IMG/VR virus record: IMGVR_UViG_2917398303_000001
Source of the DNA: a virus
Lineage: Duplodnaviria; Heunggongvirae; Uroviricota; Caudoviricetes
Reading direction: 5' to 3' (one strand)
DNA length: 42,130 bases
Shown here: positions 3,945 through 42,130 of the stretch, in pieces
Layout of the letters: every line of letters begins with the position of its first letter
How positions within the stretch are numbered: the stretch's first letter is position 1
Notes under the pieces: model-generated
What the model was told of the DNA's origin: nothing
Databases searched by the model: none
Seen by the model: only the letters and a program-made list of their open reading frames with translations
Position numbers and translations under genes: made by a program

Positions 3945-4020
3945 TGAACAAGTCCCATGTCGGCAAGCATAAGCACACAGAATATGAAGCCCGCTGCCAG
4001 AAAAATGCATTCCGTGGTTG

Positions 4021-7221: not shown

Positions 7222-7256
7222 GGAGGCAAAAGAAAACCCGGCACGGAGGCCGGGTT
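7222..7256 (-). terminator. intrinsic terminator closing the cI-proximal module
   Basis: 8-bp stem AACCCGGC / GCCGGGTT (7235-7242 and 7249-7256) with a 6-nt loop, followed on the minus strand by UUUCUUUUG; stem starts at the stop codon of the 7255..7638 gene. Confidence 0.65.
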
Positions 7257-7638: not shown

Positions 7639-8108
7639 TAGTGAATATGCTTCGCCATATCCTCATGAGAAATGGGGCCACCATCTGCACTTCCCTTGCT
7701 CCATGCTGTACCAGGCGCATGTGTTAAGTTAGACAGTTCGGTACCTGAAAATTTCCCATATACTTCGATGATTTTATTGATAAGAGCTTGAGCTTCTTGA
7801 TCATCTTTTTGAATTGTAGGGGTGATTCTTTTTAATTCGCCATCACACTCTAAGATGACGCTAATCTTTTCAGTGATTTCGTTTGCTCCATACTTCTTCA
7901 ACATATGATAAAGCGGTGGAATAACAGGCCCGAATTTCCATCTGGCGAAAAGATCATCAAAAAGCGGTGTGTTGTCGCGTAACTTTAAATGCCATGATTG
8001 AGTATAAAAAAGAAGCTTCTGGAGCTTCATTGGAGTCAGATTCTTTAACTTACCCTTTAAAGCCTTTTCAATGAAGGCATTAGCAACCGCTGCAGCTGAG
8101 TAAGCCAT
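7638..8108 (-). CDS. Panacea-domain (DUF4065) protein, candidate antitoxin (PanA/SocA-like)
   Basis: 156-aa ORF with strong RBS AAGGAGGG; N-terminal region AAAVANAFIEKA...LKNLTPMKLQKLLFYTQSWHLKL...GPVIPPLY matches the conserved core of DUF4065/Panacea proteins as I recall it. Confidence 0.55.
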   Translation of the reverse strand: MAYSAAAVANAFIEKALKGKLKNLTPMKLQKLLFYTQSWHLKLRDNTPLFDDLFARWKFGPVIPPLYHMLKKYGANEITEKISVILECDGELKRITPTIQKDDQEAQALINKIIEVYGKFSGTELSNLTHAPGTAWSKGSADGGPISHEDMAKHIH

Positions 8109-19073: not shown

Positions 19074-19551
19074 CGGCAGTACCACGAAACAACCCAAGCC
19101 AGAAAGTGGGGAAATAACACTGGCAGCCACTGAAAGATGAACCTCCAGCCTTATGGCAAAAAAGATTCTTTGTGGTGGCGGACTGATGGAAAGACATCGG
19201 TTATTGCAGAGACCATTCAATGAGTGGTCTCGACAATGGCTTATACCCTACACGGGATAACTTAACTGATATCCCTTTTAACGGATAAAGGTATTCAAGC
19301 CTGACACATCATGCGCTGTATCGTCGCTGTATTCCCGCATTAACCATGACCGTAGCCCGACGGGGAACTCCTTCTGCGCGAGTGTGCGGGAATAATCAAA
19401 AACGATGCACACCGGGTTTTTACCGCGTTTATGATTCGCGGGGTTGTCCCTCATGCTCGCCAGTCCTGTGCGGGGGTGGAAGAAACAGGACGTGTATTCA
19501 GGTCTGTGCGACCGTGGTCGCACGCATTTCTTTTATTGCTTTGAGGTAGAT

Positions 19552-19761
19552 ATGTCAGTTGCTGTTTTCGAGGCACTCAATGCACGTATTAACCAACTTG
19601 AAAGTAAGCTGAAGGAATACGATCAGCGACAGGCTGAGGCAGATGAGAAGACTCAGAACGAACTTTTCCTGGAGTTTCTTGCCATCGTTCACGAACTGAT
19701 GCCGTTAGTTAATCAGGCGCTGATGACAGGGCTGAAGGATGGAGATTTACACAGTAGGTAA
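19552..19761 (+). CDS. hypothetical coiled-coil protein (69 aa)
   Basis: ATG at 19552 after GAGGTAG RBS; last gene before cos. Confidence 0.4.
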   Translation: MSVAVFEALNARINQLESKLKEYDQRQAEADEKTQNELFLEFLAIVHELMPLVNQALMTGLKDGDLHSR

Positions 19762-19810
19762 ACCTGATCTTCTGTCCTACGGGTCCTTTCCGGCAATCCA
19801 GAACGTTACG

Positions 19811-19822
19811 GGGCGGAAGGCG
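19811..19822. other. cosN: 12-nt cohesive-end site (GGGCGGAAGGCG), flanked by lambda-like cosQ and cosB
   Basis: Flanking sequence (GTTACG | 12-mer | CGCGGGTTTTCGCTATTTATGAAAATTTTCCGG...) matches the lambda cos context, immediately upstream of nu1. Confidence 0.65.
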
Positions 19823-19999
19823 CGCGGGTTTTCGCTATTTATGAAAATTTTCCGGTTTAAGGCGTTTCCGTTCTTCTTCGCCGTAACTTAATGTTTTTAT
19901 TTAAAACACCCTCTGAAAAGAAAGGAAACGACAGGTGCTGAAAACGGGCTTTTTGGCCTCTGTCGTTTCCTTTCTCTGTTTTTGTCCGTGGAATGAACA

Positions 20000-20519
20000 A
20001 TGGAAGTCAACAAAAAGCAGCTGGCTGACATTTTCGGTGCGAGTATCCGTACCATTCAGAACTGGCAGGAGCAGGGAATGCCCGTTCTGCGGGGTGGTGG
20101 CAAGGGTAATGAGGTGCTTTATGACTCTGCCGCCGCCATAAAATGGTATGCCGAAAGGGATGCTGAAATTGAGAACGAAAAGCTGCGCCGGGAGGTTGAA
20201 GAACTGCGACAGGCCAGCGAGACAGATCTCCAGCCAGGCACTATTGAGTACGAACGCCATCGACTTACGCGTGCGCAGGCCGACGCACAGGAGCTGAAGA
20301 ATGCCAGAGACTCCGCTGAAGTGGTGGAAACCGCATTCTGTACTTTCGTGCTGTCGCGGATCGCAGGTGAAATTGCCAGTATTCTCGACGGGATCCCCCT
20401 GTCGGTGCAGCGGCGTTTTCCGGAACTGGAAAACCGACATGTTGATTTCCTGAAACGGGATATCATCAAAGCCATGAACAAAGCAGCCGCGCTGGATGAT
20501 CTGATACCGGGGTTGCTGA

Positions 20520-20545
<26 letters not shown>
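20000..20545 (+). CDS. nu1: terminase small subunit Nu1
   Basis: 181-aa ORF near-identical to lambda Nu1 (MEVNKKQLADIFGASIRTIQNWQEQGMPVLRGGGKGNEVLYDSAAAIKWY...). Confidence 0.97.
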
Positions 20546-24226
<3,681 letters not shown>

Positions 24227-24246
<20 letters not shown>

Positions 24247-25546
24247 TCTCCCGCATATTGCCAGTATGGCCTTTAATGAGCCGCTGATGCTTGAACCCGC
24301 CTATGCGCGGGTTTTCTTTTGTGCGCTTGCAGGCCAGCTTGGGATCAGCCGCCTGACGGATGCGGTGTCCGGCGACAGCCTGACTGCCGGAGAGGCACCC
24401 GCGACGCTGGCGTTATCCGGTGATGATGGCGGGCCACGACAGGCCCGCAGTTATCAGGTCATGAACGGCATCGCCGTGCTGCCGGTGTCCGGCACGCTGG
24501 TCAGCCGGACGCGGGCGCTGCAGCCGTATTCGGGGATGACCGGTTACAACGGCATTATCGCCCGTCTGCAACAGGCTGCCAGCGATCCGATGGTGGACGG
24601 CATTCTGCTCGATATGGACACGCCCGGCGGGATGGTGGCGGGGGCATTTGACTGCGCTGACATCATCGCCCGTGTGCGTGACATAAAACCGGTATGGGCG
24701 CTGGCCAACGACATGAACTGCAGTGCAGGTCAGCTGCTTGCCAGTGCCGCCTCCCGGCGTCTGGTCACGCAGACCGCCCGGACAGGCTCCATCGGCGTCA
24801 TGATGGCTCACAGTAATTACGGTGCAGCCCTGGAGAAACAGGGCGTGGAAATCACGCTGATTTACAGCGGCAGCCATAAGGTGGATGGCAACCCCTACAG
24901 CCATCTTCCGGATGACGTCCGGGAGACACTGCAGTCCCGGATGGACGCAACCCGCCAGATGTTTGCGCAGAAGGTGTCGGCATATACCGGCCTGTCTGTG
25001 CAGGCTGTGCTGGATACCGAGGCTGCAGTGTACAGCGGTCAGGAGGCCATTGATGCCGGACTGGCTGATGAACTTGTTAACAGCACCGATGCGATCACCG
25101 TCATGCGTGATGCACTGGATGCACGTAAATCCCGTCTCTCAGGAGGGCGAATGACCAAAGAGACTCAATCAACAACTGTTTCAGCCACTGCTTCGCAGGC
25201 TGACGTTACTGACGTGATGCCCGCGACGGAGGGCGAAAACGCCAGCGCGGCGCAGCCGGACGTGAATGCGCAGATCACCGCAGCGGTTGCGGCAGAAAAC
25301 AGCCGCATTATGGGGATCCTCAACTGTGAGGAGGCTCACGGACGCGAAGAACAGGCTCGCGTGCTGGCAGAAACCCCCGGTATGACCGTGGAAACGGCCC
25401 GCCGAATTCTGGCCGCAGCACCACAGAGTGCACAGGCGCGCAGTGACACTGCGCTGGATCGTCTGATGCAGGGTGCACCGGCACCGCTGGCTGCAGGTAA
25501 CCCGGCATCTGATGCCGTTAACGATTTGCTGAACACACCAGTGTAA
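24227..25546 (+). CDS. C: head protease / minor capsid protein C
   Basis: 439 aa from GTG at 24227 (the track ORF starts further upstream); matches lambda gpC; overlaps the B 3' end. Confidence 0.92.
24941..25546 (+). CDS. nu3: scaffolding protein Nu3 (in-frame internal start within C)
   Basis: Internal ATG at 24941 (MDATRQMFAQKV...) in the C frame, the same nested arrangement as lambda C/Nu3. Confidence 0.65.
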   Translation: MDATRQMFAQKVSAYTGLSVQAVLDTEAAVYSGQEAIDAGLADELVNSTDAITVMRDALDARKSRLSGGRMTKETQSTTVSATASQADVTDVMPATEGENASAAQPDVNAQITAAVAAENSRIMGILNCEEAHGREEQARVLAETPGMTVETARRILAAAPQSAQARSDTALDRLMQGAPAPLAAGNPASDAVNDLLNTPV

Positions 25547-25555
25547 GGGATGTTT

Positions 25556-25888
25556 ATGACGAGCAAAGAAACCTTTACCCATTACCAGCCGCTGGGCAAC
25601 AGTGACCCGGCTCATACCGCAACCGCGCCCGGCGGATTGAGTGCGAAAGCACCTGCAATGACCCCGCTGATGCTGGACACCTCCACCCGTAAGCTGGTTG
25701 CGTGGGATGGCACCACCGACGGTGCTGCTGTTGGCATTCTTGCGGTTGCTGCTGACCAGACCAGCACCACGCTGACGTTCTACAAGTCCGGCACGTTTCG
25801 TTATGAGGATGTGCTCTGGCCGGAGGCTGCCAGCGACGAGACGAAAAAACGGACCGCGTTTGCCGGAACGGCAATCAGCATCGTTTAA
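25556..25888 (+). CDS. D: head decoration protein D
   Basis: 110 aa ([12 protein letters not shown]...) matching lambda gpD; the second ATG has the better RBS spacing. Confidence 0.95.
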
Positions 25889-25909
25889 CTTTACCCTTCA
25901 TCACTAAAG

Positions 25910-25931
25910 GCCGCCTGTGCGGCTTTTTTTT
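25910..25931 (+). terminator. hairpin plus U-tract between D and E
   Basis: Stem GCCGC / GCGGC with loop CTGT, followed by TTTTTTTT. Confidence 0.5.
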
Positions 25932-25944
25932 ACGGGATTTTTTT

Positions 25945-26970
25945 ATGTCGATGTACACAACCGCCCAGCTGCTGGCGGCAAATGAGCAGAAATTTAAGTT
26001 TGATCCGCTGTTTCTGCGTCTCTTTTTCCGTGAAAGCTATCCCTTCACCACGGAGAAAGTCTATCTCTCACAAATTCCGGGACTGGTAAACATGGCGCTG
26101 TACGTTTCGCCGATTGTTTCCGGTGAGGTTATCCGCTCCCGTGGCGGCTCCACCTCTGAATTTACGCCGGGATATGTCAAGCCGAAGCATGAGGTGAATC
26201 CGCAGATGACCCTGCGTCGCCTGCCGGATGAAGATCCGCAGAATCTGGCGGACCCGGCTTACCGCCGCCGTCGCATCATTATGCAGAACATGCGTGACGA
26301 AGAGCTGGCCATTGCCCAGGTCGAAGAGATGCAGGCAGTTTCTGCCGTGCTTAAGGGCAAATACACCATGACCGGTGAAGCCTTCGATCCGGTTGAGGTG
26401 GATATGGGCCGCAGTGCGGCGAATAACATCACGCAGTCCGGCGGCACGGAGTGGAGCAAGCGTGACAAGTCCACGTATGACCCGACCGACGATATCGAAG
26501 CCTACGCGCTGAACGCCAGCGGTGTGGTGAATATCATCGTGTTCGATCCGAAAGGCTGGGCGCTGTTCCGTTCCTTCAAAGCCGTCAAGGAGAAGCTGGA
26601 TACCCGCCGCGGCTCTAATTCCGAGCTGGAGACAGCGGTAAAAGACCTGGGCGAAGCGGTGTCCTATAAGGGGATGTATGGCGATGTGGCGATCGTCGTG
26701 TATTCCGGACAGTACGTGGAAAACGACGTCAAAAAGAACTTCCTGCCGGACAACACGATGGTGCTGGGGAACACTCAGGCACGCGGTCTGCGCACCTATG
26801 GCTGCATTCAGGATGCGGACGCACAGCGCGAAGGCATTAACGCCTCTGCCCGCTACCCGAAAAACTGGGTGACCACCGGCGATCCGGCGCGTGAGTTCAC
26901 CATGATTCAGTCAGCACCGCTGATGCTGCTGGCTGACCCTGATGCGTTCGTGTCCGTACAACTGGCGTAA
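25945..26970 (+). CDS. E: major capsid protein E
   Basis: 341-aa ORF near-identical to lambda gpE. Confidence 0.97.
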   Translation: MSMYTTAQLLAANEQKFKFDPLFLRLFFRESYPFTTEKVYLSQIPGLVNMALYVSPIVSGEVIRSRGGSTSEFTPGYVKPKHEVNPQMTLRRLPDEDPQNLADPAYRRRRIIMQNMRDEELAIAQVEEMQAVSAVLKGKYTMTGEAFDPVEVDMGRSAANNITQSGGTEWSKRDKSTYDPTDDIEAYALNASGVVNIIVFDPKGWALFRSFKAVKEKLDTRRGSNSELETAVKDLGEAVSYKGMYGDVAIVVYSGQYVENDVKKNFLPDNTMVLGNTQARGLRTYGCIQDADAQREGINASARYPKNWVTTGDPAREFTMIQSAPLMLLADPDAFVSVQLA

Positions 26971-27011
26971 TCGTGGCCCTTCGGGGCCATTTTCTCTCTG
27001 TGGAGGAGTCC

Positions 27012-27410
27012 ATGACGAAAGATGAACTGATTGCCCGTCTCCGGTCGTTGGGTGAGCAACTGAACCGTGATGTCAGCCTGACGGGGACGAAAGAAGAATT
27101 GGCGCTCCGTGTGGCAGAGCTGGAAGAAGAGCTTGATGACACGGATGACACTGCCGGTCAGGACACCCCTCTCAGCCCGGAAAATGTGCTGACCGGGCAT
27201 GAAAATGAGGCTGTATCAGCGCAGCCGGATACCGTGATTCAGGATGCGGCTGATCTGGTCACGGTCGTGGCACTGGTGACGCTGCACACCGATGCACTTC
27301 ACGCCACGCGGGATGAAACTGTGGCATTTGTGCTGCCGGGAACGGCGTTTCGTGTCTCTGCCGGTGTGGCAGCCGAAATGACAGAACGTGGCCTGGCCAG
27401 AATGCAATAA
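27012..27410 (+). CDS. FI: DNA packaging protein FI
   Basis: 132 aa from ATG at 27012 after GGAGGA; matches lambda gpFI. Confidence 0.93.
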   Translation: MTKDELIARLRSLGEQLNRDVSLTGTKEELALRVAELEEELDDTDDTAGQDTPLSPENVLTGHENEAVSAQPDTVIQDAADLVTVVALVTLHTDALHATRDETVAFVLPGTAFRVSAGVAAEMTERGLARMQ

Positions 27411-27421
27411 CGGGAGGCGCT

Positions 27422-27775
27422 GTGGCTGATTTCGATAACCTGTTCGATGCTGCCATTGCCCGCGCCGATGAAACGATACGCGGGTACATGGGAACGTCAG
27501 CCACCATGACATCCGGTGAGCAGTCCGGTGCGGTGATACGTGGTGTTTTTGATGACCCTGAAAATATCAGCTATGCCGGACAGGGCGTGCGCGTTGAAGG
27601 CTCCAGCCCGTCCCTGTTTGTCCGGACTGATGAGGTGCGGCAGCTGCGGCGTGGAGACACGCTGACCATCGGTGAGGAAAACTTCTGGGTAGATCGGGTT
27701 TCGCCGGATGATGGTGGAAGCTGTCATCTCTGGCTTGGACGGGGCGTACCGCCTGCCGTTAACCGTCGCCGCTGA
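27422..27775 (+). CDS. FII: head-tail connector protein FII
   Basis: 117-aa ORF with GTG start; matches lambda gpFII. Confidence 0.93.
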   Translation: MADFDNLFDAAIARADETIRGYMGTSATMTSGEQSGAVIRGVFDDPENISYAGQGVRVEGSSPSLFVRTDEVRQLRRGDTLTIGEENFWVDRVSPDDGGSCHLWLGRGVPPAVNRRR

Positions 27776-27786
27776 AAGGGGGATGT

Positions 27787-28365
27787 ATGGCCATAAAAGG
27801 TCTTGAGCAGGCCGTTGAAAACCTCAGCCGTATCAGCAAAACGGCGGTGCCTGGTGCCGCCGCAATGGCTATTAACCGCGTTGCTTCATCCGCGATATCG
27901 CAGTCGGCGTCACAGGTTGCCCGTGAGACAAAGGTACGCCGGAAACTGGTAAAGGAAAGGGCCAGGCTGAAAAGGGCCACGGTCAAAAATCCGCAGGCCA
28001 GAATCAAAGTTAACCGGGGGGATTTGCCCGTAATCAAGCTGGGTAATGCGCGGGTTGTCCTGTCCCGCCGCAGGCGTCGTAAAAAGGGGCAGCGTTCATC
28101 CCTGAAAGGTGGCGGCAGCGTGCTTGTGGTGGGTAACCGTCGTATTCCCGGCGCGTTTGTTCAGCAACTGAAAAATGGCCGGTGGCATGTCATGCAGCGT
28201 GTGGCCGGGAAAAATCGTTACCCCATTGATGTGGTGAAAATTCCGATGGCGGTGCCGCTTACCACGGCATTTAAACAGAATATTGAACGGATACGGCGTG
28301 AACGTCTTCCGAAAGAGCTGGGCTATGCGCTGCAGCATCAACTGAGAATGGTAATAAAGCGATGA
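27787..28365 (+). CDS. Z: tail completion protein Z
   Basis: 192-aa ORF matching lambda gpZ. Confidence 0.95.
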   Translation: MAIKGLEQAVENLSRISKTAVPGAAAMAINRVASSAISQSASQVARETKVRRKLVKERARLKRATVKNPQARIKVNRGDLPVIKLGNARVVLSRRRRRKKGQRSSLKGGGSVLVVGNRRIPGAFVQQLKNGRWHVMQRVAGKNRYPIDVVKIPMAVPLTTAFKQNIERIRRERLPKELGYALQHQLRMVIKR

Positions 28366-28757
28366 AACATACTGAACTCCGTGCAGCCGTACTGGATGCA
28401 CTGGAGAAGCATGACACCGGGGCGACGCTTTTTGATGGTCGCCCCGCTGTTTTTGATGAGGCGGATTTTCCGGCAATTGCCGTTTATCTCACTGGCGCTG
28501 AATACACGGGCGAAGAGCTGGACAGCGATACCTGGCAGGCTGAGCTGCATATCGAAGTTTTCCTGCCTGCTCAGGTGCCGGATTCAGAGCTGGATTCGTG
28601 GATGGAGTCCCGGATTTATCCGGTGATGAGCGATATTCCGGCACTGTCAGACTTGATCACCAGTATGGTGGCCAGTGGCTATGACTACCGACGCGACGAT
28701 GATGCGGGCCTGTGGAGTTCAGCCGATCTGACTTATGTCATTACCTATGAAATGTGA
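28362..28757 (+). CDS. U: tail terminator protein U
   Basis: 131-aa ORF matching lambda gpU. Confidence 0.95.
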
Positions 28758-28764
28758 GGACGAT

Positions 28765-29505
28765 ATGCCTGTACCAAATCCTACAATGCCGGTGAAAGGG
28801 GCCGGGACCACACTGTGGGTTTATAAGGGGAACGGTGACCCTTATGCGAACCCGCTTTCAGACGTTGACTGGTCGCGTCTGGCAAAAGTTAAAGACCTGA
28901 CGCCCGGCGAACTGACCGCTGAGTCCTATGACGACAGTTATCTCGATGATGAAGATGCGGACTGGACTGCGACCGGGCAGGGGCAGAAATCAGCCGGAGA
29001 TACCAGCTTCACGCTGGCGTGGATGCCCGGAGAGCAGGGGCAGCAGGCGCTGCTGGCGTGGTTTAATGAAGGTGATACCCGTGCCTATAAAATCCGCTTC
29101 CCGAACGGCACGGTCGATGTGTTCCGTGGCTGGGTCAGCAGTATCGGTAAAGCGGTGACGGCGAAGGAAGTGATCACCCGCACGGTGAAGGTCACCAATG
29201 TGGGACGCCCGTCGATGGCAGAAGATCGCAGCACGGTAACAGCGGCCACCGGCATGACGGTAACGCCAGCCAGTGCTTCCGTAGTGAAAGGGCAGAGCAC
29301 CACGCTGACCGTGGCATTCCAGCCGGAAGGCGCAACCGACAAGAGCTTCCGTGCGGTGTCTGCGGATAAAACAAAAGCCACCGTGTCGGTCAGTGGTATG
29401 ACCATCACCGTGAACGGCGTTGCTGCAGGCAAGGTCAACATTCCGGTGGTATCCGGTAATGGTGAGTTTGCTGCGGTTGCAGAAATCACCGTCACCGCCA
29501 GTTAA
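28765..29505 (+). CDS. V: major tail tube protein V
   Basis: 246 aa from ATG at 28765 ([14 protein letters not shown]...); matches lambda gpV, including the C-terminal Ig-like domain. Confidence 0.95.
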
Positions 29506-29520
29506 TCCGGAGAGTCAGCG

Positions 29521-29943
29521 ATGTTCCTGAAAACCGAATCATTTGAACATAACGGCGTGACCGTCACGCTTTCTGAACTGTCAGCCCTGCAGCGTATTGA
29601 GCATCTCGCCCTGATGAAACGGCAGGCAGAACTGGCGGAGTCAGACAGCAACCGGAAGTTTACTGTGGAAGACGCCATCAGAACCGGCGCTTTTGTGGTG
29701 GCGATGTCCCTGTGGCATAACCATCCGAAGAAGACGCAGATGCCGTCCATGAATGAAGCCGTTAAACAGATTGAGCAGGAAGTGCTTACCACCTGGCCTA
29801 CAGAGGCAATTTCTCATGCTGAAAACGTGGTGTACCGGCTGTCCGGTATGTATGAGTTTGTGGTGAATAATGCCCCTGAACAGACAGAGGACGCCGGGCC
29901 TGCAGAGCCTGTTTCTGCGGGAAAGTGTTCGACGGTGAGCTGA
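29521..29943 (+). CDS. G: tail assembly chaperone G
   Basis: 140-aa ORF matching lambda gpG. Confidence 0.95.
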   Translation: MFLKTESFEHNGVTVTLSELSALQRIEHLALMKRQAELAESDSNRKFTVEDAIRTGAFVVAMSLWHNHPKKTQMPSMNEAVKQIEQEVLTTWPTEAISHAENVVYRLSGMYEFVVNNAPEQTEDAGPAEPVSAGKCSTVS

Positions 29944-30359
29944 GTTTTGCCCTGAAACTGGCGCGAGAGATGGGGCGACCCGACTGGCGCGCCATGCTTG
30001 CCGGGATGTCATCCACGGAGTATGCCGACTGGCACCGCTTTTACAGTACCCATTATTTTCATGATGTTCTGCTGGATATGCACTTTTCCGGGCTGACATA
30101 CACCGTGCTCAGCCTGTTTTTCAGCGATCCGGATATGCATCCGCTGGATTTCAGTCTGCTGAACCGGCGCGAGGCTGACGAAGAGCCTGAAGATGATGTG
30201 CTGATGCAGAAAGCGGCAGGGCTTGCCGGAGGCGTCCGCTTTGACCCGGACGGGAATGAAGTTATCCCCGCATCCCCGGATATGGCGGGCATGACGGAGG
30301 ATGACGTAATGCTGATGACAGTATCAGAAGGGATCGCAGGAGGAGTCCGGTATGGCTGA
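29521..30359 (+). CDS. T: tail assembly chaperone G-T fusion via -1 programmed ribosomal frameshift
   Basis: Slippery heptamer GGGAAAG at 29919-29925 near the end of G; T frame open from 29925 to 30359, as in lambda G/GT. Confidence 0.8.
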
Positions 30360-32912
30360 ACCGGTAGGCGATCTGGTCGTTGATTTAAGTCTGGATGCGG
30401 CCAGATTTGACGAGCAGATGGCCAGAGTCAGGCGTCATTTTTCCGGTACGGAAAGTGATGCGAAAAAACAGCGGCAGTCGTTGAACAGTCGCTGAGCCGA
30501 CAGGCGCTGGCTGCACAGAAAGCGGGGATTTCCGTCGGGCAGTATAAAGCCGCCATGCGTATGCTGCCTGCACAGTTCACCGACGTGGCCACGCAGCTTG
30601 CAGGCGGGCAAAGTCCGTGGCTGATCCTGCTGCAACAGGGTGGTCAGGTGAAGGACTCCTTCGGCGGGATGATCCCCATGTTCAGGGGGCTTGCCGGTGC
30701 GATCACCCTGCCGATGGTCGGGGCCACCTCGCTGGCGGTGGCGACAGGTGCGCTGGCGTATGCCTGGTATCAGGGCAACTCAACCCTGTCCGATTTCAAC
30801 AAAACGCTGGTCCTTTCCGGTAATCAGTCGGGTCTGACGGCAGATCGTATGCTGGTCCTGTCCAGAGCCGGGCAGGCCGCAGGGCTGACGTTTAACCAGA
30901 CCAGCGAGTCACTCAGCGCACTGGTTAAGGCGGGGGTAAGCGGCGAGGCTCAGATTGCGTCCATCAGCCAGAGTGTGGCGCGTTTCTCCTCTGCATCCGG
31001 TGTGGAGGTGGACAAGGTCGCTGAAGCCTTCGGGAAGCTGACCACTGACCCGACGTCGGGGCTGACAGCGATGGCGCGCCAGTTCCATAACGTGACGGCG
31101 GAGCAGATTGCGTATGTTGCTCAGTTGCAGCGTTCCGGCGATGAAGCCGGGGCATTGCAGGCGGCGAACGAGGCCGCAACGAAAGGGTTTGATGACCAGA
31201 CCCGCCGCCTGAAAGAGAACATGGGCACGCTGGAAACCTGGGCAGGCAGGACAGCACGGGCATTCAAATCCATGTGGGATGCTGTGCTGGATATTGGTCG
31301 TCCTGATACCGCTCAGGAGATGCTGATTAAGGCAGAGGCTGCGTTTAAGAAAGCGGACGACATCTGGAATCTGCGCAAGGATGATTATTTTGTTAACGAT
31401 GAAGCGCGGGCACGTTACTGGGATGATCGTGAAAAGGCCCGTCTTGCGCTTGAAGCCGCGAGAAAGAAGGCTGAACAGCAGAGTCAACAGGACAAAAATG
31501 CGCAGCAGCAGAGCGATACCGAAGCGTCACGGCTGAAATATACCGAAGAGGCGCAGAAGGCTTACGAACGGCTGCAGACGCCGCTGGAGAAATATACCGC
31601 CCGTCAGGAAGAACTGAATAAGGCACTGAAAGACGGAAAAATCCTGCAGGCAGATTACAACACGCTGATGGCAGCGGCGAAAAAGGATTATGAAGCGACG
31701 CTGAAAAAGCCGAAACAGTCCGGCGTGAAGGTGTCTGCGGGCGATCGTCAGGAAGACAGTGCTCATGCTGCCCTGCTGACGCTTCAGGCAGAACTCCGGA
31801 CACTGGAGAAGCATGCCGGAGCGAATGAGAAAATCAGCCAGCAGCGCCGGGATTTGTGGAAGGCAGAAAGTCAGTTCGCGGTACTGGAGGAGGCGGCACA
31901 ACGTCGCCAGCTGTCCGCACAGGAGAAATCCCTGCTGGCGCATAAAGATGAGACGCTGGAGTACAAACGCCAGCTGGCTGCACTTGGTGACAAGGTTACG
32001 TATCAGGAGCGCCTGAACGCGCTGGCGCAGCAGGCGGATAAATTCGCACAGCAGCAACGGGCAAAACGGGCCGCCATTGAGGCGAAAAACCGGGGGCTGA
32101 CTGACCGGCAGGCAGCGCGGGACGCCACGGAACAGCGCCTGAAGGAGCAGTATGGCGATAATCCTCTGGCGCTGAATAACGTCATGTCAGAGCAGAAAAA
32201 GACCTGGGCAACTGAAGACCAGCTTCGTGGGAGCTGGATGGCTGGCCTGAAGTCCGGCTGGAGCGAGTGGAAAGAGAGTGCCACAGACAGTATGTCGCAG
32301 GTTAAAAGTGCTGCTACGCAGACCTTTGATGGTATTGCGCAGAATATGGCGGCGATGCTGACCGGCAGTGAACAGAACTGGCGCAGCTTCACCCGTTCCG
32401 TGCTGTCCATGATGACAGAAATTCTGCTTAAGCAGGCAATGGTGGGAATTGTCGGGAGTATCGGCAGCGCCATTGGCGGTGCTGCCGGTGGTGGCGCATC
32501 AGCGTCAGGCGGTACAGCCATTCAGGCTGCTGCGGCAAAATTCCATTTTGCGACTGGGGGATTTACGGGAACCGGCGGCAAATATGAGCCTGCGGGGATT
32601 GTTCACCGTGGTGAATTTGTCTTCACGAAGGAGGCAACCAGCCGGATTGGCGTGGGGAATCTCTACCGGCTGATGCGCGGCTATGCCACCGGTGGTTATG
32701 TCGGTACACCGGGCAGCCTGGCGGACAGCCGGTCGCAAGCGTCCGGGAAGTTTGAGCAGAATAACCATGTGGTGATTAATAATGACGGCACGAACGGTCA
32801 GATAGGTCCGGCTGCTCTGAAGGCGGTGTATGACATGGCCCGCAAGGGTGCCCGTGATGAAATTCAGACACAGATGCGTGATGGTGGCCTGTTCTCCGGA
32901 GGTGGACGATGA
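30352..32912 (+). pseudogene. H: tail tape measure protein H, reading frame interrupted near codon 40 (apparent 1-nt deletion in an A-run)
   Basis: ATG at 30352 overlaps the T stop and opens a 47-codon ORF ending at 30495; the rest of H continues in the -1 frame as the 785-aa ORF 30555..32912; the frames switch at the run of six A at 30463-30468. Confidence 0.75.
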
Positions 32913-33238
32913 AAACCTTCCGCTGGAAAGTGAAACCGGGTATGGATGTGGCTTCGGCTCCTTCCGTCAGGGAGGTGCGCTTTGGTGATGGTTACTCCCA
33001 GCGCGCGCCTGCCGGGCTGAATGCCAACCTGAAAACGTACAGCGTGACACTTTCTGTTTCCCGTGAGGAAGCCACGGCGCTGGAGTCATTTCTGGCAGAG
33101 CACGGGGGCTGGAAAGCCTTTCTGTGGACACCGCCTTATGGCTACCGGCAGATAAAGGTGACCTGCGCAAAGTGGACTGTGCGGGTCAGTATGTTGCGCG
33201 CTGAGTTCAGCGCAGAGTTTAAACAGGTGGTGAACTGA
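32909..33238 (+). CDS. M: tail tip protein M
   Basis: 109-aa ORF matching lambda gpM. Confidence 0.95.
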   Translation: MKTFRWKVKPGMDVASAPSVREVRFGDGYSQRAPAGLNANLKTYSVTLSVSREEATALESFLAEHGGWKAFLWTPPYGYRQIKVTCAKWTVRVSMLRAEFSAEFKQVVN

Positions 33239-33936
33239 TGCAGGATATCCGGCAGGAAACACTGAATGAATGCACCCGTGCGGAGCAGTCGGCCAGCGTG
33301 GTGCTCTGGGAAATCGATCTGACAGAGGTCGGTGGAGAACGTTATTTTTTCTGTAATGAGCAGAACGAAAAAGGTGAGCCGGTCACCTGGCAGGGGCGGC
33401 AGTATCAGGCGTATCCCATTCAGGGAAGCGGTTTTGAACTGAATGGCAAAGGCACCAGTACGCGCCCCACGCTGACGGTTTCTAACCTGTACGGTATGGT
33501 CACCGGTATGGCGGAGGATTTGCAGAGTCTGGTCGGCGGAACGGTGGTCCGGCGTAAGGTTTACGCCCGTTTTCTGGATGCGGTGAACTTCGTCAACGGA
33601 AACAGTGACGCCGATCCGGAGCAGGAGGTGATCAGCCGCTGGCGCATCGAGCAGTGCAGCGAACTGAGCGCGGTCAGTGCCTCTTTTGTACTGTCCACGC
33701 CGACGGAAACGGATGGTGCTGTTTTCCCGGGGCGCATCATGCTGGCCAACACCTGCACCTGGACCTATCGCGGTGATGAGTGCGGTTATAACGGTCCGGC
33801 TGTCGCGGATGAATATGACCAGCCGACGTCCGATATCACGAAGGATAAATGCAGCAAATGCCTGAGTGGTTGTAAGTTTCGCAATAACGTCGGCAACTTT
33901 GGCGGCTTCCTTTCCATTAACAAACTTTCGCAGTAA
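33238..33936 (+). CDS. L: tail tip protein L
   Basis: 232-aa ORF matching lambda gpL. Confidence 0.95.
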   Translation: MQDIRQETLNECTRAEQSASVVLWEIDLTEVGGERYFFCNEQNEKGEPVTWQGRQYQAYPIQGSGFELNGKGTSTRPTLTVSNLYGMVTGMAEDLQSLVGGTVVRRKVYARFLDAVNFVNGNSDADPEQEVISRWRIEQCSELSAVSASFVLSTPTETDGAVFPGRIMLANTCTWTYRGDECGYNGPAVADEYDQPTSDITKDKCSKCLSGCKFRNNVGNFGGFLSINKLSQ

Positions 33937-33941
33937 ATCCC

Positions 33942-34685
33942 ATGACACAGACAGAATCAGCGATTCTGGCGCACGCCCGACGATGTGCGCCAGCGGAGTC
34001 GTGCGGCTTCGTGGTGAGAACGCCGGAGGGGGAAAGATATTTTCCCTGCGTGAATATCTCCGGTGAGCCGGAGGATTATTTCCGGATGTCGCCGGAGGAC
34101 TGGCTGCAGGCAGAAATGCGGGGTGAGATTGTGGCGCTGGTCCACAGCCACCCCGGTGGTCTGCCCTGGCTGAGTGAGGCCGACCGGCGGCTGCAGGTGC
34201 AGAGTGATTTGCCGTGGTGGCTGGTCTGCCGGGGGGCGATTCATAAGTTCCGCTGTGTGCCGCATCTCACCGGGCGGCTCTTTGAGCACGGGGTGACGGA
34301 CTGTTACACGCTGTTCCGGGATGCTTACCATCTGGCGGGGATTGAGATGCCGGATTTTCATCGTGAGGATGACTGGTGGCGTAACGGTCAGAATCTCTAT
34401 CTGGATAATCTGGAGGCCACAGGGCTGTATCAGGTGCCGTTGTCAGCGGCGCAGCCGGGCGATGTGCTGCTGTGCTGTTTTGGTTCATCTGTGCCGAATC
34501 ATGCCGCCATTTACTGTGGTGACGGCGAGCTGCTGCACCATATTCCTGAACAACTGAGCAAACGAGAGAGGTATACCGACAAATGGCAGCGACGCACACA
34601 CTCCCTCTGGCGTCACCGGGCATGGCACGCATCTGCCTTTACGGGGATTTACAACGATTTGGCCGCCGCATCGACCTTCGTGTGA
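33942..34685 (+). CDS. K: tail tip assembly protein K (JAB/MPN plus NlpC/P60-like)
   Basis: 247-aa ORF starting 6 nt after L; contains the JAMM motif (ALVHSHPGG); the classical lambda annotation starts at the internal Met at 34086. Confidence 0.9.
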   Translation: MTQTESAILAHARRCAPAESCGFVVRTPEGERYFPCVNISGEPEDYFRMSPEDWLQAEMRGEIVALVHSHPGGLPWLSEADRRLQVQSDLPWWLVCRGAIHKFRCVPHLTGRLFEHGVTDCYTLFRDAYHLAGIEMPDFHREDDWWRNGQNLYLDNLEATGLYQVPLSAAQPGDVLLCCFGSSVPNHAAIYCGDGELLHHIPEQLSKRERYTDKWQRRTHSLWRHRAWHASAFTGIYNDLAAASTFV

Positions 34686-35254
34686 AAACGGGGGCCGAAG
34701 CCATCCGGGCGCTGGCCACACAGCTCCCTGCGTTTCGTCAGAAACTGAGCGACGGCTGGTATCAGGTGCGTATTGCCGGGCAGGATGTCAGCACGTCCGG
34801 ATTAACGGCGCAGTTACATGAGGCTCTGCCTGATGGCGCTGTGATTCATATTGTTCCCAGAGTCGCCGGGGCCAAGTCAGGTGGTGTATTCCAGATTGTC
34901 CTGGGAGCAGCCGCCATTGCCGGATCATTCTTTACCGCCGGAGCCACCCTTGCAGCATGGGGGGCTGCCATTGGTGCCGGTGGTATGACCGGCATTCTGT
35001 TTTCTCTCGGTGCCAGTATGGTGCTCGGCGGTGTGGCTCAGATGCTGGCACCGAAAGCCAGAACTCCCCGCACACAGACAACGGATAACGGTAAGCAGAA
35101 CACCTATTTCTCCTCACTGGATAACATGGTTGCCCAGGGCAATGTTATGCCTGTTCTGTATGGTGAAATGCGCGTGGGGTCACGTGTGGTATCTCAGGAG
35201 ATCAGCACGGCAGATGAAGGGGACGGTGGTCAGGTTGTGGTGATTGGTCGATGA
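34583..35254 (+). CDS. I: tail tip assembly protein I
   Basis: 223-aa ORF matching lambda gpI; overlaps the K 3' end by 103 nt as in lambda. Confidence 0.95.
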   Translation: MAATHTLPLASPGMARICLYGDLQRFGRRIDLRVKTGAEAIRALATQLPAFRQKLSDGWYQVRIAGQDVSTSGLTAQLHEALPDGAVIHIVPRVAGAKSGGVFQIVLGAAAIAGSFFTAGATLAAWGAAIGAGGMTGILFSLGASMVLGGVAQMLAPKARTPRTQTTDNGKQNTYFSSLDNMVAQGNVMPVLYGEMRVGSRVVSQEISTADEGDGGQVVVIGR

Positions 35255-35314
35255 TGCAAAATATTTTATGTGAAACCGCCTGCGGGCGGTTTTGTCGTTT
35301 ATGGAGCATGACGA

Positions 35315-38300
35315 ATGGGTAAAGGCAGCAGTAAGGGACATACCCCGCGCGAAGCAAAGGACAATCTGAAGTCCACGCAGTTGCTGAGTGTGATCGATGC
35401 CATCAGCGAAGGGCCGATTGAAGGTCCGGTGGATGGATTAAAAAGCGTGCTGCTGAACAGTACACCGGTGCTGGACAGTGAGGGGAATACCAACATCTCC
35501 GGTGTCACGGTGGTATTCCGGGCAGGTGAGCAGGAACAGACACAGCCGGAGGGATTTGAATCCTCCGGATCCGAGACGGTGCTGGGTACGGAAGTGAAAT
35601 ACGACACGCCGATCACCCGGACCATCACGTCTGCAAACATCGACCGTCTGCGCTTTACCTTCGGTGTGCAGGCACTGGTGGAAACCACCTCAAAGGGTGA
35701 CAGGAATCCGTCGGAAGTCCGCCTGCTGGTTCAGATCCAGCGTAATGGTGGCTGGGTGACGGAAAAAGACATCACCATTAAGGGCAAAACCACCTCGCAG
35801 TATCTGGCCTCGGTGGTGGTGGGTAACCTGCCGCCGCGCCCGTTCAATATACGGATGCGCAGGATGACGCCGGACAGCACCACAGACCAGCTGCAGAACA
35901 AAACGCTCTGGTCGTCATACACCGAAATCATCGATGTGAAACAGTGCTACCCGAACACGGCACTGGTCGGCGTGCAGGTGGATTCGGAGCAGTTCGGCAG
36001 CCAGCAGGTGAGCCGTAATTATCATCTGCGCGGGCGCATTCTGCAGGTGCCGTCGAACTATAACCCGCAGACGCGGCAATACAGCGGTATCTGGGACGGA
36101 ACGTTTAAGCCAGCATACAGCAACAACATGGCATGGTGCCTGTGGGATATGCTGACCCATCCGCGCTACGGCATGGGGAAACGTCTTGGTGCGGCGGATG
36201 TGGACAAATGGGCGCTGTATGTCATCGGCCAGCATTGCGATCAGTCGGTGCCGGACGGTTTTGGCGGCACGGAGCCGCGCATCACCTGTAATGCGTACCT
36301 GACCACACAGCGTAAGGCGTGGGATGTTCTCAGTGATTTCTGCTCGGCGATGCGCTGTATGCCGGTATGGAACGGGCAGACGCTGACGTTCGTGCAGGAC
36401 CGACCGTCGGATAAGGTGTGGACCTATAACCGCAGTAATGTGGTGATGCCGGATGATGGCGCGCCGTTCCGCTACAGCTTCAGCGCCCTGAAGGACCGCC
36501 ATAATGCCGTTGAGGTGAACTGGATTGACCCGAATAACGGCTGGGAGACGGCGACAGAGCTTGTGGAGGACACGCAGGCCATTCTCCGTTACGGTCGTAA
36601 CGTCACGAAGATGGATGCTTTTGGCTGTACCAGCCGGGGGCAGGCACACCGCGCCGGGCTGTGGCTGATTAAAACGGAGCTGCTGGAAACGCAGACCGTG
36701 GACTTCAGCGTGGGTGCAGAAGGGCTTCGCCATGTACCGGGCGATGTCATTGAAATCTGTGATGATGACTATGCGGGTATCAGCATCGGCGGGCGCGTGC
36801 TGGCGGTGAACAGCCAGACCCGGACGCTGACGCTCGACCGTGAAATCACGCTGCCATCCTCCGGCACCACGCTGATAAGCCTGGTTGACGGACAGGGGAA
36901 TCCGGTCAGCGTGGAGGTCCAGTCCGTCACCGACGGCGTGAAGGTGAAAGTGAGCCGGGTTCCTGACGGCGTTGCCGAGTACAGCGTGTGGGGGCTGAAG
37001 CTGCCGACGCTGCGCCAGCGCCTGTTCCGCTGTGTGAGTATCCGTGAGAACGATGACGGTACGTATGCCATCACTGCCGTGCAGCATGTGCCGGAGAAAG
37101 AAGCCATCGTGGATAACGGGGCGCACTTTGACGGTGACCAGAGCGGCACGGTGAATGGTGTCACGCCGCCAGCGGTGCAGCACCTGACCGCAGAAGTCAC
37201 CGCAGACAGCGGGGAATATCAGGTGCTGGCGCGCTGGGACACGCCGAAGGTGGTGAAGGGCGTGAGCTTCCTGCTTCGCCTGACCGTGGCTGCGGATGAT
37301 GGCAGTGAACGGCTGGTCAGCACGGCCCGGACGACGGAAACCACATACCGCTTCAGGCAACTGGCGCTGGGAAATTACAGGCTGGCAGTCCGGGCGGCAA
37401 ATGCCTGGGGGCAGCAGGGCGATCCGGCATCGGTATCGTTCCGGATTGCCGCACCGGCAGCGCCGTCGCGGATTGAGCTGACGCCGGGCTATTTTCAGAT
37501 AACCGCCACGCCCCATCTTGCCGTTTATGATCCGACGGTACAGTTTGAGTTCTGGTTCTCGGAAAAGCGGATTACCGATATCAGGAAGGTTGAAACCAGC
37601 GCGCGTTATCTTGGCACGGCGCTGTACTGGATAGCCGCCAGTATCAATATCAAGCCGGGCCATGATTATTATTTTTATATCCGCAGTGTGAATACTGTTG
37701 GCAAATCGGCATTCGTGGAGGCTGTCGGTCGGGCGAGCGATGATGCGGAAGGTTACCTGGATTTTTTCAAAGGCCAGATAACCGAATCTCATCTCGGCAA
37801 GGAGCTGCTGGAAAAAGTCGAGCTGACGGAGGATAACGCCAGCAAACTGGAGGAGTTTTCGAAAGAGTGGAAAGACGCCAACGATAAATGGAATGCCATG
37901 TGGGGCGTCAAAATTGAGCAGACCGAAGACGGCAGGCATTATGTCGCGGGGCTTGGCCTCAGCATGGAGGATACGGAGGAAGGTAAACTGAGCCAGTTCC
38001 TGGTTGCCGCTAACCGTATCGCGTTTATTGACCCGGCAAACGGGAATGAAACGCCGATGTTTGTGGCGCAGGGCAACCAGATATTCATGAACGAGGTGTT
38101 CCTGAAGTATCTGACGGCGCCAACCATTACCAGCGGCGGTAATCCTCCGGTATTTTCCCTGACACCGGACGGGCGGCTGACGGCGAAAAATGCCGATATC
38201 AGCGGTAACGTGAACGCGAACTCCGGGACGCTCAATAATGTCACGATTAACCAGAACTGTCGGATTATGGGAAAACTGTCTGCCAACCAGATTGAAGGTG

Positions 38301-38713
38301 ATATTGTCAAAACGGTGGGAAAAGCCTTTCCGAGAAATGGCAGTTATGCCAGCGGTACAATAACGGTCACTGTGTACGATGACCAGGCTTTTGACCGTCA
38401 GATAGTAATCCCACCCGTTCTGTTTCGCGGTGGTAAGCATGAAAACTTCAACAGCAACAACCAACAGTCATACTGGTATTCGACCTGTAAGCTGCAGGTA
38501 CTGAAGAACGGACAGGAAATCTTTCAGCAACCCGCGACGGATGTCAGCAGGGTATTTTCATCCGTCATTGATATGCCAGCGGGACACGGCCATGTCACCC
38601 TGACTTTCAATGTTTCTTCATATGGTGCTCATAACTGGACGCCAACGACCAGTATCAGCGACCTTCTTGTTGTCGTGATGAAGAAATCAACAGCCGGTAT
38701 CAGTATCAGTTGA
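35315..38713 (+). CDS. J: central tail fibre / host-specificity protein J
   Basis: 1132-aa ORF; N-terminal about 980 aa match lambda gpJ; the C-terminal about 150 aa look divergent from lambda. Confidence 0.95.
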
Positions 38714-38732
38714 ATTTTATAACCCAAATACG

Positions 38733-38758
38733 GGCGCCAGAAATGGCGCCTTTTTTAT
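38733..38758 (+). terminator. intrinsic terminator after J
   Basis: Stem GGCGCC / GGCGCC with loop AGAAAT, followed by TTTTTTATTT. Confidence 0.7.
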
Positions 38759-38771
38759 TTGTGGAGTGAAT

Positions 38772-40834
38772 ATGGCAGTACAGATTTCAGGCGTGCTGAA
38801 AGACGGTGCAGGAAAACCAATACAGAACTGCACTATTCAGCTCAAAGCAAAGCGTAACAGCACCACGGTACTGGTGAACACGGTGGCCTCTGAAAATCCG
38901 GATGAAGCCGGGCGTACAGCATGGATGTTGAGTACGGTCAGTACAGCGTCATTCTGTTGGTGGAGGGATTCCCGCCGTCACATGCCGGGACCATTACCGT
39001 CTATGAAGGTTCCAGGCCAGGTACGCTGAATGATTTTCTCGGTGCCATGACGGAAGATGATGTCATGCCTGAGGCATTGCGCCGTTTTGAGGAAATATTG
39101 GAAGAAACGGCACGAAACGCTGAAGCTGCCTCTCAGAGCGCAGCGGCGGCAAAGAAATCCGAAACTGCAGCGGCATCATCGAAGAACGCGGCGAAAACGT
39201 CAGAGACGAATTCAGCCAACAGCGAGAAAGCTGCTGCATCTTCTAAAACAGCATCAGAAACAGCAGCAACAGCAGCATCACTTTCAGAGGCTAATGCCCG
39301 GGCGTCAGAGGAGAAATCTGCAGAAAATGCTGACGCAGCACGTCGTGAAGCATTATTAGCGACAACTGCAGCTGAAACTGCCACCACAAAAGCGCAGGAG
39401 GCCGCAGCAGACGCAACAAAGGCCGGGCAGAAAAAGGATGAAGCCGTCGCGGCGGCGACACGTTCGGAAGCGGCGGCAGACCGCGCAGAAGCTGCAGCGG
39501 AAGTGACTGTAAAACCATATGTGAATATAGTTCCGCCGCTGCCTGATGTCTGGATTCCGTTTAATGATTCACTGGATATGATTACGGGCTTTTCGCCGTC
39601 ATATAAAAGGATTGTTATTGGCGATGATGAAATAACAATGCCTGGCGACAAGATTGTAAAGTTTAAACGCGCATCAAAAGCAACTTACATTAATAAATCT
39701 GGTGTGCTGACAGAGGCTGCCATTGACGAGCCACGATTTGAATGTGATGGCCTGCTTATTGAGGGGCAAAGAACGAACTTCTTCCCGAACAGTACAGACC
39801 CTTCGAAGTGGAATAAGTCAACTTCACTGGACGTTACAGAAACAGGCACAGATAGTTTCGGTTTTAATTATGGCCGGTTTGTCGTACAGGATTCGATTGT
39901 TGGCACAAGTAAAGCGCATACCATTATAGGGCTGTATTCAAGTACCGGAGGGGTTGATACTTCAGGTGACGAAAAGTATGTAACTATATCCTGTCGGGTA
40001 AAAAGTGAAGTTGATAATATCGCCGTTCGTATTTTATTTGAACATTATGATGGGGAGGTAAGGACATCAATAGGAGCAGCAAGCCTGAACCTTACCACCC
40101 GCATAATTAGCAAGACAGGCCAGACAAGCCGTGTTACAGCAAGGTCTGTTAAGGAAGATGCAACTGGCTGGATATTTTTTGAGGCTACATTAAAAGCAGA
40201 TACAACAGAAAATACGGTTGGTGGTTTCGTCCAGTATTCTCCGGATACAGGGCAGATGGTGGCATCAGGGGATTGTCTCGATGTAACCACTCCACAGATT
40301 GAGGCTGGTACAGGCGCATCATCTTTTATTGTTACGGGGGCGGCACCGGTAACGCGGGCAAGCGATATAGTTACAGTCCCAATTAAGAATAATCTTTATA
40401 ATCTTCCTTTTACGGTTCTTTGTGAGGTACATAAGAACTGGTATAAAACGCCAAATGCAGCACCGCGTGTTTTTGATACCGGCGGTCATCAAACCGGAGC
40501 GGCTATTATTCTTGGCTTCGGTTCTTCAGCAGATTACGACGGATTTCCTTATTGCGATATTGGTGGGTCTAACAGACGGATAAACGAAAATGCATCACTT
40601 GAAAAAATGGTTATGGGGATGCGTGTAAAGTCTGATCAGTCTACATGCGCAGTAAGTAACGGGCGTATATCCAGCGAAACAAAAACCACATGGTCATATA
40701 TTCAGAACTCCGCAATTATCCGTATTGGAGGCCAGACTACAGCCGGTTTACGCCATTTATTTGGTCATGTCAGGAATTTCAGAATATGGCATAAAGAATT
40801 AACTGATGCGCAAATGGGGGAGAGTATTAAATGA
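38772..40834 (+). pseudogene. stf: side tail fibre Stf: lambda-type N-terminal anchor, Ala-rich coiled coil, non-lambda C-terminal domain; apparent frameshift after codon 46
   Basis: ATG at 38772 opens MAVQISGVLKDGAGKPIQNCTIQLKAKRNSTTVLVNTVASENPDEAGR, then the frame is lost; the continuation MDVEYGQYSVIL... is in the -1 frame (ORF 38921..40834). Confidence 0.7.
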
Positions 40835-41112
40835 AAGATTTAACACTCAAATTTTCCGACAGGGCCGACTTTTCGGCCTTTATGGATAGCACTGGCTATT
40901 ATGATGACGAGTCGATGCAGGATGATATTCTCATTGACGTGATAGGTGACGTGTATAAAGAAACCGGAGAACTGACTGACGATGGCGAGCCGGTATGTGT
41001 TAAGGAAGACGGATATTTTGTAAACGTGCGCATCATTAATGATGTGAAAACACCGTCAATATTCGATGAATACGCGGTTGTTGTTGAGCATCAACTTCGT
41101 GGCTGGATGTGA
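40831..41112 (+). CDS. hypothetical acidic protein (93 aa) translationally coupled to stf
   Basis: ATG overlaps the stf stop (ATGA) with a GGGGGAGAG RBS; strongly acidic; occupies the Tfa position but is half the usual Tfa size. Confidence 0.45.
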   Translation: MKDLTLKFSDRADFSAFMDSTGYYDDESMQDDILIDVIGDVYKETGELTDDGEPVCVKEDGYFVNVRIINDVKTPSIFDEYAVVVEHQLRGWM

Positions 41113-41121
41113 GGGAGACAA

Positions 41122-41823
41122 ATGGCTACATCGACAGTAATTCCAGGAGATATCACTACGCTAAAGGGAGATGTCAGTAAAGCTAAGGAAGATATTTCCT
41201 CAATTAGCGGAAAAGTATCAACGCTTCAGACTGATATGGACAGTGCAAAGCAGGATATCAGTACCAGATACACAAAAACTGAAGTGGATAATAAGCTGAA
41301 AAATAAAGTAGAAGTGAATGATCTGGAAAGCGGTCGTTATGGCGGGGATTTTTATCCACTGACAGGTCGTGAAGCGTTTTATTTATGGAATTTGGCTACG
41401 ACTACAGCTGCGGCAAACCTTTATCTTAATCCTGACCCCGCAATTTCGTCTGTATTGCGGTCAACATCGTCTATCCGCTATAAGCATTCAGTAGAGACGA
41501 TAGATTCAGAGCACGCCGATCTCATTCTCAAGATGCGCCCTGTATGGTACAGGTCGCAATGCGAAAATGACAGGCGTGATTGGGGGTTCTATGGATTGAT
41601 TGCCGAGGAAGTAGGAGAAATTGCCCCTCAGTTTGTACACTGGCGACCAGCTAACGAAGATGATGCTCCTGAAGCTATTTCCAGCAATGGCCTTGTTGCC
41701 GAAGGTGTAATGTACGAACGTCTGGTTGTTCCACTGATTCACCATATCCAGAAACTGACTGAAAGAGTTGATGAACTTGAGTCAGAATTAAAGCTGTTAT
41801 CAACTTCCCGAAGCGATATCTGA
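41122..41823 (+). CDS. fibre-like protein with C-terminal intramolecular-chaperone (peptidase S74-like) domain
   Basis: 233-aa ORF with GAGGGAGA RBS; N-terminal coiled coil; C-terminal region (SSIRYKHSVETI ... WGFYGLIAEEVGEIAPQFV ... GLVAEGVMYERLVVPLIHHIQKLTERVDELE) resembles the S74 auto-cleaving chaperone domain of tail fibres and tailspikes. Confidence 0.5.
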   Translation: MATSTVIPGDITTLKGDVSKAKEDISSISGKVSTLQTDMDSAKQDISTRYTKTEVDNKLKNKVEVNDLESGRYGGDFYPLTGREAFYLWNLATTTAAANLYLNPDPAISSVLRSTSSIRYKHSVETIDSEHADLILKMRPVWYRSQCENDRRDWGFYGLIAEEVGEIAPQFVHWRPANEDDAPEAISSNGLVAEGVMYERLVVPLIHHIQKLTERVDELESELKLLSTSRSDI

Positions 41824-41836
41824 TAAAGGAGGAGTA

Positions 41837-42130
41837 ATGGATATAAGCCCCTTACTTCATGCACTTTGTGCTGTGGCTGCGCAGATACTGGTTGGTCTTT
41901 TTACCGGAAACTGGGTTTACGGAGCGATAGCCGGCTGTACGTTCTTCATTGCGCGTGAACACACCCAGGCAGAATATCGCTGGATTGAAATGTTCGGGCA
42001 TGGCAAGCGGATTAACATGCCGTGGTGGGGCGGTTTTGATCCACGCGCGTGGGATGTAGCAAGCCTGATGGATTTTGCTGTGCCGGTGGTGGCGTGTCTG
42101 CTGGTCTGGGTATTTATCCGTTCAACATAA
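41837..42130 (+). CDS. small integral membrane protein (97 aa)
   Basis: Strong RBS AAGGAGGAG; hydrophobic segments at both ends (LLHALCAVAAQILVGLF ; FAVPVVACLLVWVFI); function unknown; its stop is the last base of the window. Confidence 0.45.
   Translation: MDISPLLHALCAVAAQILVGLFTGNWVYGAIAGCTFFIAREHTQAEYRWIEMFGHGKRINMPWWGGFDPRAWDVASLMDFAVPVVACLLVWVFIRST

Follow-up and report, generated by a model that had tools for sequence, protein, structure and literature searches.

In the deposited sequence, the side tail fibre gene (stf) of the lambdoid prophage analysed here is spread over two reading frames, and its lambda-like beginning is followed by a distal part that is unlike that of lambda. This raises the question of whether the prophage has lost its side fibres or whether the real gene is intact, and of what kind of fibre the gene encodes. 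The window, meaning the whole stretch of 42,130 nucleotides of virus record IMGVR_UViG_2917398303_000001, contains the complete gene and its neighbours. By its sequence, stf belongs to a widespread Stf subtype that is already known, and it carries a 1-nt frameshift early in the gene. The best explanation as a whole, to which we give a probability of about 0.58, is that this is a lambdoid Stf of a known type with an artefactual missing T, and that the fibre would bind a glycan.

The stf gene starts with the ATG at position 38772, directly downstream of J (35315-38713), and the features mapped in this region are all on the plus strand. The 58-nt spacer between J and stf contains a terminator-like hairpin (GGGCGCC-AGAAAT-GGCGCC followed by a T run; 38732-38751). 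The lom gene, present in lambda and in the sister strain E3356, is missing between J and stf in the window. The native frame of stf covers codons 1 to 48 (38772-38915; MAVQISG...DEAGR) and encodes the first part of the PF08400 anchoring domain. The original prediction was right that the first codons match the N terminus of lambda Stf, but the native frame is longer than the 46 codons that it counted. It had also placed a loss of frame early in the gene, and alignment with four intact homologues confirmed this: all four read CGT-TAC where the window stf reads CGTAC (38913-38917), so that one T of the TT is missing at codon 49. Beyond this point the upstream frame runs on out of frame, without coding meaning, from 38916 to 39029, where it ends at a TGA (39027-39029). 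The continuation in the -1 frame is, as predicted, an open reading frame of 637 codons (38921-40834; 637 aa). The PF08400 domain is thereby split over the two frames, with profile positions 1 to 46 matched upstream (75.7 bits) and positions 51 to 131 matched downstream (119 bits; 38921-39163). A single unbroken stf frame is absent in the deposited sequence as a result of this 1-nt deletion, and when the T is put back, a single 687-aa product without a stop is obtained.

Behind the anchoring domain lies a shaft rich in Ala, Ser, Thr, and Glu (39176-39532) that shows homology with the repeats of lambda orf-401. Its Ala content is 34% (residues 86 to 204 of the downstream open reading frame), in agreement with the Ala-rich proximal part that had been predicted. 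The distal module opens with a conserved adapter (PLPDVWIPFNDSLDM ... EPRFE.DGLLIEGQRTN; 39533-39790) that is common to all subtypes of the PHROG 1419-type Stf family. It continues with a variable domain (NF048003; 39755-40360) that has homology to the head spike fibre of RcGTA, and it ends with a probable C-terminal LamG/pentraxin-like (concanavalin A-type) lectin domain (40400-40831), which is assigned from matches of the family profile and of the relatives. Three genes follow. A 93-aa accessory gene (PHROG 1361; 40831-41112) always follows a PHROG 1419-type stf, and the next gene encodes a 233-aa protein with a coiled-coil N terminus and a Peptidase_S74 intramolecular-chaperone domain (41122-41823), which is a conserved partner of this type of stf. 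The last gene of the module is a 97-aa accessory gene (PHROG 1443; 41837-42130). In the relatives, the 3' gene set is likewise fixed: first a 93-aa gene, then one for an S74-domain protein (about 233 aa), and then one of about 97 aa. The S74 protein is 345 aa long in phages 2G7b and Tritos and 233 aa long here, and it aligns with the 2G7b protein over the first 32 residues only. Its role may be that of a second fibre in shortened form or of a factor that assists the assembly of Stf.

The base composition changes along the gene. Total GC, at first 0.53-0.56, falls to 0.43-0.46 at about 39500, the place from which the sequence had been described as richer in AT. The drop in GC3 sits earlier, at about 39160; in the shaft, total GC stays high because of the Ala codons. 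At the other end, the low GC extends through the two genes 3' of stf, up to 41823. The early drop in GC3 and the low GC up to 41823 mean that the compositional module is larger than the distal domain: the compositional unit consists of the shaft, the distal module, and the accessory genes.

The distal module can be assigned to a family that is already annotated. PHROG 1419 is matched at an E value of 6e-296, and NF048003 is matched over residues 279 to 480 with 67.7 bits against a cut-off of 36. In this type, the parts are named "prophage tail fiber N-terminal domain" and "phage head spike fiber domain." The repaired protein aligns from end to end with the annotated side tail fibres of ev243 (78.6% identity), an E. 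coli WP8-S18 prophage (75.6%), Tritos (62.5%), and phages 2E9 and 4C10 (61 to 64%), and also with the proteins of P0001 and P0002. The family comprises 2,413 cluster representatives at E ≤ 1e-3, and in 287 of 5,426 complete E. coli genomes the region is covered to 80% or more. Isolated phages (ev243, 2G7b, and Tritos) carry this distal type as well. Compared with the Stf proteins of ev243, 2G7b, Tritos, and E3356 (WP_135383362.1), the window Stf has the same order of domains and nearly the same length (687 aa, against 687 to 689 aa), the same 3' genes, and the same place after J. Intact alleles are up to 99% identical, and the window Stf differs solely in the T lacking at codon 49 of the deposited sequence. 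The distal module is thus a widespread Stf type already annotated in PHROGs and NCBIfam, with nothing new in kind. A receptor-binding end foreign to lambda had been predicted and was indeed found; the view of it as an unusual chimera did not hold, given PHROG 1419, NF048003, and the 287 genomes. That stf genes are mosaic and can exchange their distal modules is textbook knowledge of lambdoid phages. Within the family, the central and C-terminal domains are reshuffled independently among the subtypes, and the two distal domains of Tritos are 62% (distal A) and 92% (distal B) identical to those of the window. The same distal module is also found on a 598-aa protein of P0031 (locus positions 2501-4297) that has no lambda-type N-terminal domain and lies 3' of a 1,649-aa J-like protein, and the module can therefore move from one kind of tail anchor to another. 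Two short database entries had been considered as further broken stf genes, and both were rejected: a 561-aa entry results from the start-site call on an intact open reading frame, and the 598-aa entry behind the 1,649-aa J represents a different architecture.

Only the N-terminal third is common to the window Stf and lambda Stf. The anchoring domains are 81% identical over 130 aa, and both genes have an Ala-rich shaft, a place downstream of J, and a 1-nt frameshift in the reference sequence. Lambda orf-401 was matched only over residues 1 to 243. Lambda orf-314 gave no BLASTP match and a probability of 0.07% in hhalign, which bears out the claim that the distal part is unlike the C terminus of lambda Stf. 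Whereas orf-314 matches PF07484 and PF03335 (Collar and Phage_fiber repeats, T4 gp37-like), the window open reading frame matches neither. Lambda Stf binds OmpC and needs Tfa, whereas in the window there is no tfa gene downstream of stf. The frameshift in lambda PaPa is, as originally noted, a different one. It splits stf into orf-401 and orf-314 near codon 400, whereas the break in the window is at codon 49.

The profile search that had been suggested for the distal residues gave, besides the NF048003 match, a remote relationship of the central domain with Rcc01080 (GhsB), the RcGTA head spike fibre. The E value was 1.4e-5 with the single sequence, 4e-11 with a 5-sequence profile, and 1.6e-39 with a 45-sequence profile. 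Domains homologous to the central domain also occur in the baseplate protein gp45 of Pseudomonas phage E217 (8ENV), in a chain deposited as "gp46 Baseplate wedge 2" (9B45), and in a tail fibre gp17 (9OCC). Capsular polysaccharide is the ligand of the RcGTA head spike fibre (PMC7296036, PMC10218006), and Tritos, a bearer of a PHROG 1419-type fibre, forms plaques on K-12 (PMC9928086). Going by its remote homology to the capsule-binding RcGTA fibre, the distal module would most likely have a surface glycan, and not OmpC, as its receptor. The two proteins differ in other respects. Rcc01080 is a single subunit on the capsid vertices, attached via an N-terminal Ile/Leu-Gly repeat, and has no lambda-type anchor, Ala-rich shaft, or LamG-like C-terminal domain. 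The structure 6TB9 resolves only residues 2 to 10 of Rcc01080, so that the homologous domain is without a solved structure there. In profile comparisons, the C-terminal 150 aa, with the motif G.R.LFGH.RNFR.W, resemble pentraxins and laminin-G domains (C-reactive protein, 3.5e-5). Laminin_G_3 (PF13385) is matched by 31 of 45 relatives, whereas the window sequence by itself matches no Pfam family at the C terminus. An AlphaFold2 model of the distal 433 aa from a 16-sequence alignment had a pLDDT of 30 and was unusable. When the 2E9 distal domain was used as the query, the homologue search gave only sequences identical to the query and added no diversity. As a GTA-spike-fibre-like and LamG-like class carried by hundreds of E. 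coli prophages, these Stf proteins are a reasonable target for studies of receptor-binding proteins.

The window is 100% identical to PDIB01000028.1 (GCA_004745285.1) over the 14.8 kb compared. This is the genome of E4694, an Escherichia sp. of cryptic clade II from intertidal sediment, in which the lambdoid prophage lies at proA-thrW (tRNA-Thr, 1369-1444). The genome was sequenced by Ion Torrent with single-end reads of 35 to 400 bp at 50x, and MIRA and SPAdes were used for the assembly (PMC6639607). E3356 has the same prophage at the same site, with an intact stf of 688 aa. In the cos-to-J structural module (about 19290-38850), the two prophages are 96 to 98% identical, and at both ends they are about 99.9% identical. 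Compared with E3356, 10 substitutions are clustered in positions 38769 to 38846, together with a 3-nt indel; from 38847 on, the sequence is near-identical except for the missing T and one synonymous change. Over 38921-42130, the two sequences differ by two substitutions. This is a module exchange, with the right junction inside the stf N-terminal domain (38847-38914). The host proA (positions 1-1360) shows 36 differences in 1.25 kb from E3356 (about 2.9%), next to an almost identical prophage. The divergence of proA suggests either recombination of the host flank or an independent acquisition of the same prophage.

A second lesion that breaks an open reading frame is found in the tape-measure gene H (30352-32912). 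At 30463-30468 on the plus strand, the window has A6 where relatives have A7, and compared with phage 2G7b, this splits H into open reading frames of 47 aa and 785 aa. The lesion looks private; among 5,426 E. coli genomes, only 4 have the A6 allele. In the NCBI annotation, no gene is called at the H locus. The other structural genes are intact, with 92 to 100% protein identity to 2G7b. Three further candidates were rejected. The C4-to-C3 change in ylcG (15020), which breaks a 46-aa open reading frame compared with 2G7b and PhiR30_1, is shared with E3356 and thus not private. The difference from PhiR30_1 near the start of kil, in the number of tandem copies of a 5-bp GTTGA at about 6899, is not a clear lesion, since a 68-aa KilR open reading frame is still called. 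A seemingly split rtcB in the host flank proved to be intact.

When the GenBank assemblies are compared with the Logan assemblies made from the same reads, every difference is a 1-nt homopolymer indel, and there are no substitutions. For E4694, these are G4/G3 at 15285 and CC/C at 42020 (2 in 29.4 kb), and for E3356, AA/A and TTT/TT (2 in 9.6 kb; positions 5707 and 7831 of the compared stretch). The CC/C and AA/A differences show that runs of two bases are demonstrably unstable in the data of these two strains. In the GenBank assembly of E3356, the TTT/TT site cuts a SocA_Panacea-domain gene from 156 to 102 aa. In the near-identical prophage DNA of E4694 and E3356, 2 T-run indels were found against 1 substitution in 12.5 kb (4 in 18 kb). 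Such a ratio of T-run indels to substitutions, about 1:1, is far above that of a normal mutational spectrum.

We therefore consider it probable that the T missing from the deposited assembly is a homopolymer under-call of the Ion Torrent platform and that the real gene is intact. A characteristic error of Ion Torrent is the loss of bases at short homopolymers, which in some cases depends on the strand (PMC3431227). A 41-mer with the missing T had no match in 5,426 E. coli genomes, and an exact 28-mer had none in 185,579 species-representative genomes or in 2.9 million viral contigs, whereas the repaired 42-mer with the intact site is present in 3,637 of the 5,426 E. coli genomes. The artefact reading thus draws on the platform, the 1-nt loss in a run, the private allele, and the near-identical intact stf of E3356, as well as on the A7-to-A6 change in H, the further homopolymer-only differences between assemblies, and the ratio of indels to substitutions. 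In that case the true gene would encode an intact 687-aa fibre. Its lambda-type N-terminal domain would anchor Stf to the tail tip and would be followed by an Ala-rich trimeric shaft and a distal module of about 430 aa with the RcGTA-spike-like and LamG/pentraxin-like lectin domains. The three conserved small genes after stf, one of them with an S74 chaperone domain, would complete the arrangement.

Several points count against an artefact. Such errors typically fall in long runs, and a run of two bases is much less prone to them. Prophage genes are under relaxed selection, so that real frameshifts are common there. The GenBank assembly and the independent Logan assembly both show the missing T and the A6 in H, and most reads therefore probably carry both. 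The host flank of about 17 kb is without a broken open reading frame where about 1.3 would be expected, which is only weakly informative. The alternative is that a real, very recent 1-nt deletion inactivated stf and that A7-to-A6 may have inactivated H, resulting in early decay or in particles without side fibres like those of lambda PaPa. We regard this as possible, but as the less likely of the two. In its favour, two independent assemblers concur on both lesions, and the A6 allele of H is found in 4 other E. coli genomes. The stf of this family is disrupted in other ways elsewhere, by an internal deletion in TUM14697 and by an IS3 element in the stf region of AVS0096. Lambda PaPa shows that the loss of stf is tolerated (Hendrix and Duda 1992, cited at second hand). 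On the other hand, there is no decay after the stf break: the 637-codon frame is open and, within stf, 1 nt away from the intact allele of E3356, and the remaining structural genes are intact as described above. The lesions that break open reading frames are 1-nt losses in runs, the error signature of the platform, and at least one such indel, the TTT/TT of E3356, is demonstrably an assembly discrepancy. An indel-to-substitution ratio of about 1:1 between near-identical prophages also argues against real mutation. A more specific version of this alternative is that the loss is real and natural and lies beside the module-exchange junction, so that the prophage of an environmental clade II lysogen would just have lost its side fibres and, with the A6, its tape measure too. 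We consider this unlikely. If true, it would be a natural parallel to the stf loss of lambda PaPa, caught a handful of substitutions from the intact allele. Should the lesion in H be real as well, the prophage would lack not just side fibres but tails and would simply be defective.

The position of the junction also allows the idea that the deletion is a by-product of the structural-module recombination, as the transition to an E3356-like right end falls in 38847-38914, just upstream of the missing T. Dense differences up to 38846, near-identity from 38847 on, and the lower identity over about 19.4 to 38.8 kb than at both ends are in line with this. Homologous recombination, however, is not normally a source of 1-nt deletions. 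That the missing T lies within 70 nt of the junction is probably a coincidence, the lesion in H is left unexplained, and as a sub-case of a real mutation, the idea meets the same objections. We consider it highly improbable. Even less credit can be given to a functional frameshift, in which a programmed -1 slip would give full-length Stf or a restart at ATG 38921 would give an N-terminally truncated fibre. Over 38906-39029 the two frames are open together, and a -1 slip in 38906-38915 would result in a near-native protein. But an X XXY YYZ slippery heptamer is absent at the site, ATG 38921 is not preceded by a Shine-Dalgarno sequence, and a product made from it would be without the first 50 residues of the PF08400 anchoring domain. 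Moreover, the two-frame arrangement is conserved in no relative (0 matches of the allele, compared with 3,637 genomes with the intact site), and programmed frameshifting and re-initiation were rejected as effectively refuted.

With an artefactual missing T as the preferred reading, the suggestion that fibre loss may be recurrent becomes doubtful as biology, because it would depend on a private, under-length TT run in Ion Torrent data, and the parallel with PaPa, at a different site, is only superficial. The finding has little biological weight, and its practical value is cautionary. Frameshifts in drafts based only on Ion Torrent data should not be read as gene loss without a check of the reads, and this stf frameshift in particular calls for read-level or Sanger confirmation before it is equated with fibre loss.

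One of the relatives showed a neighbourhood of its own. In E. coli TUM14697, whose stf is the pseudogene with the internal deletion, cdtA and cdtB, encoding cytolethal distending toxin, lie directly 3' of the same stf accessory module (6677-7950 of its locus).
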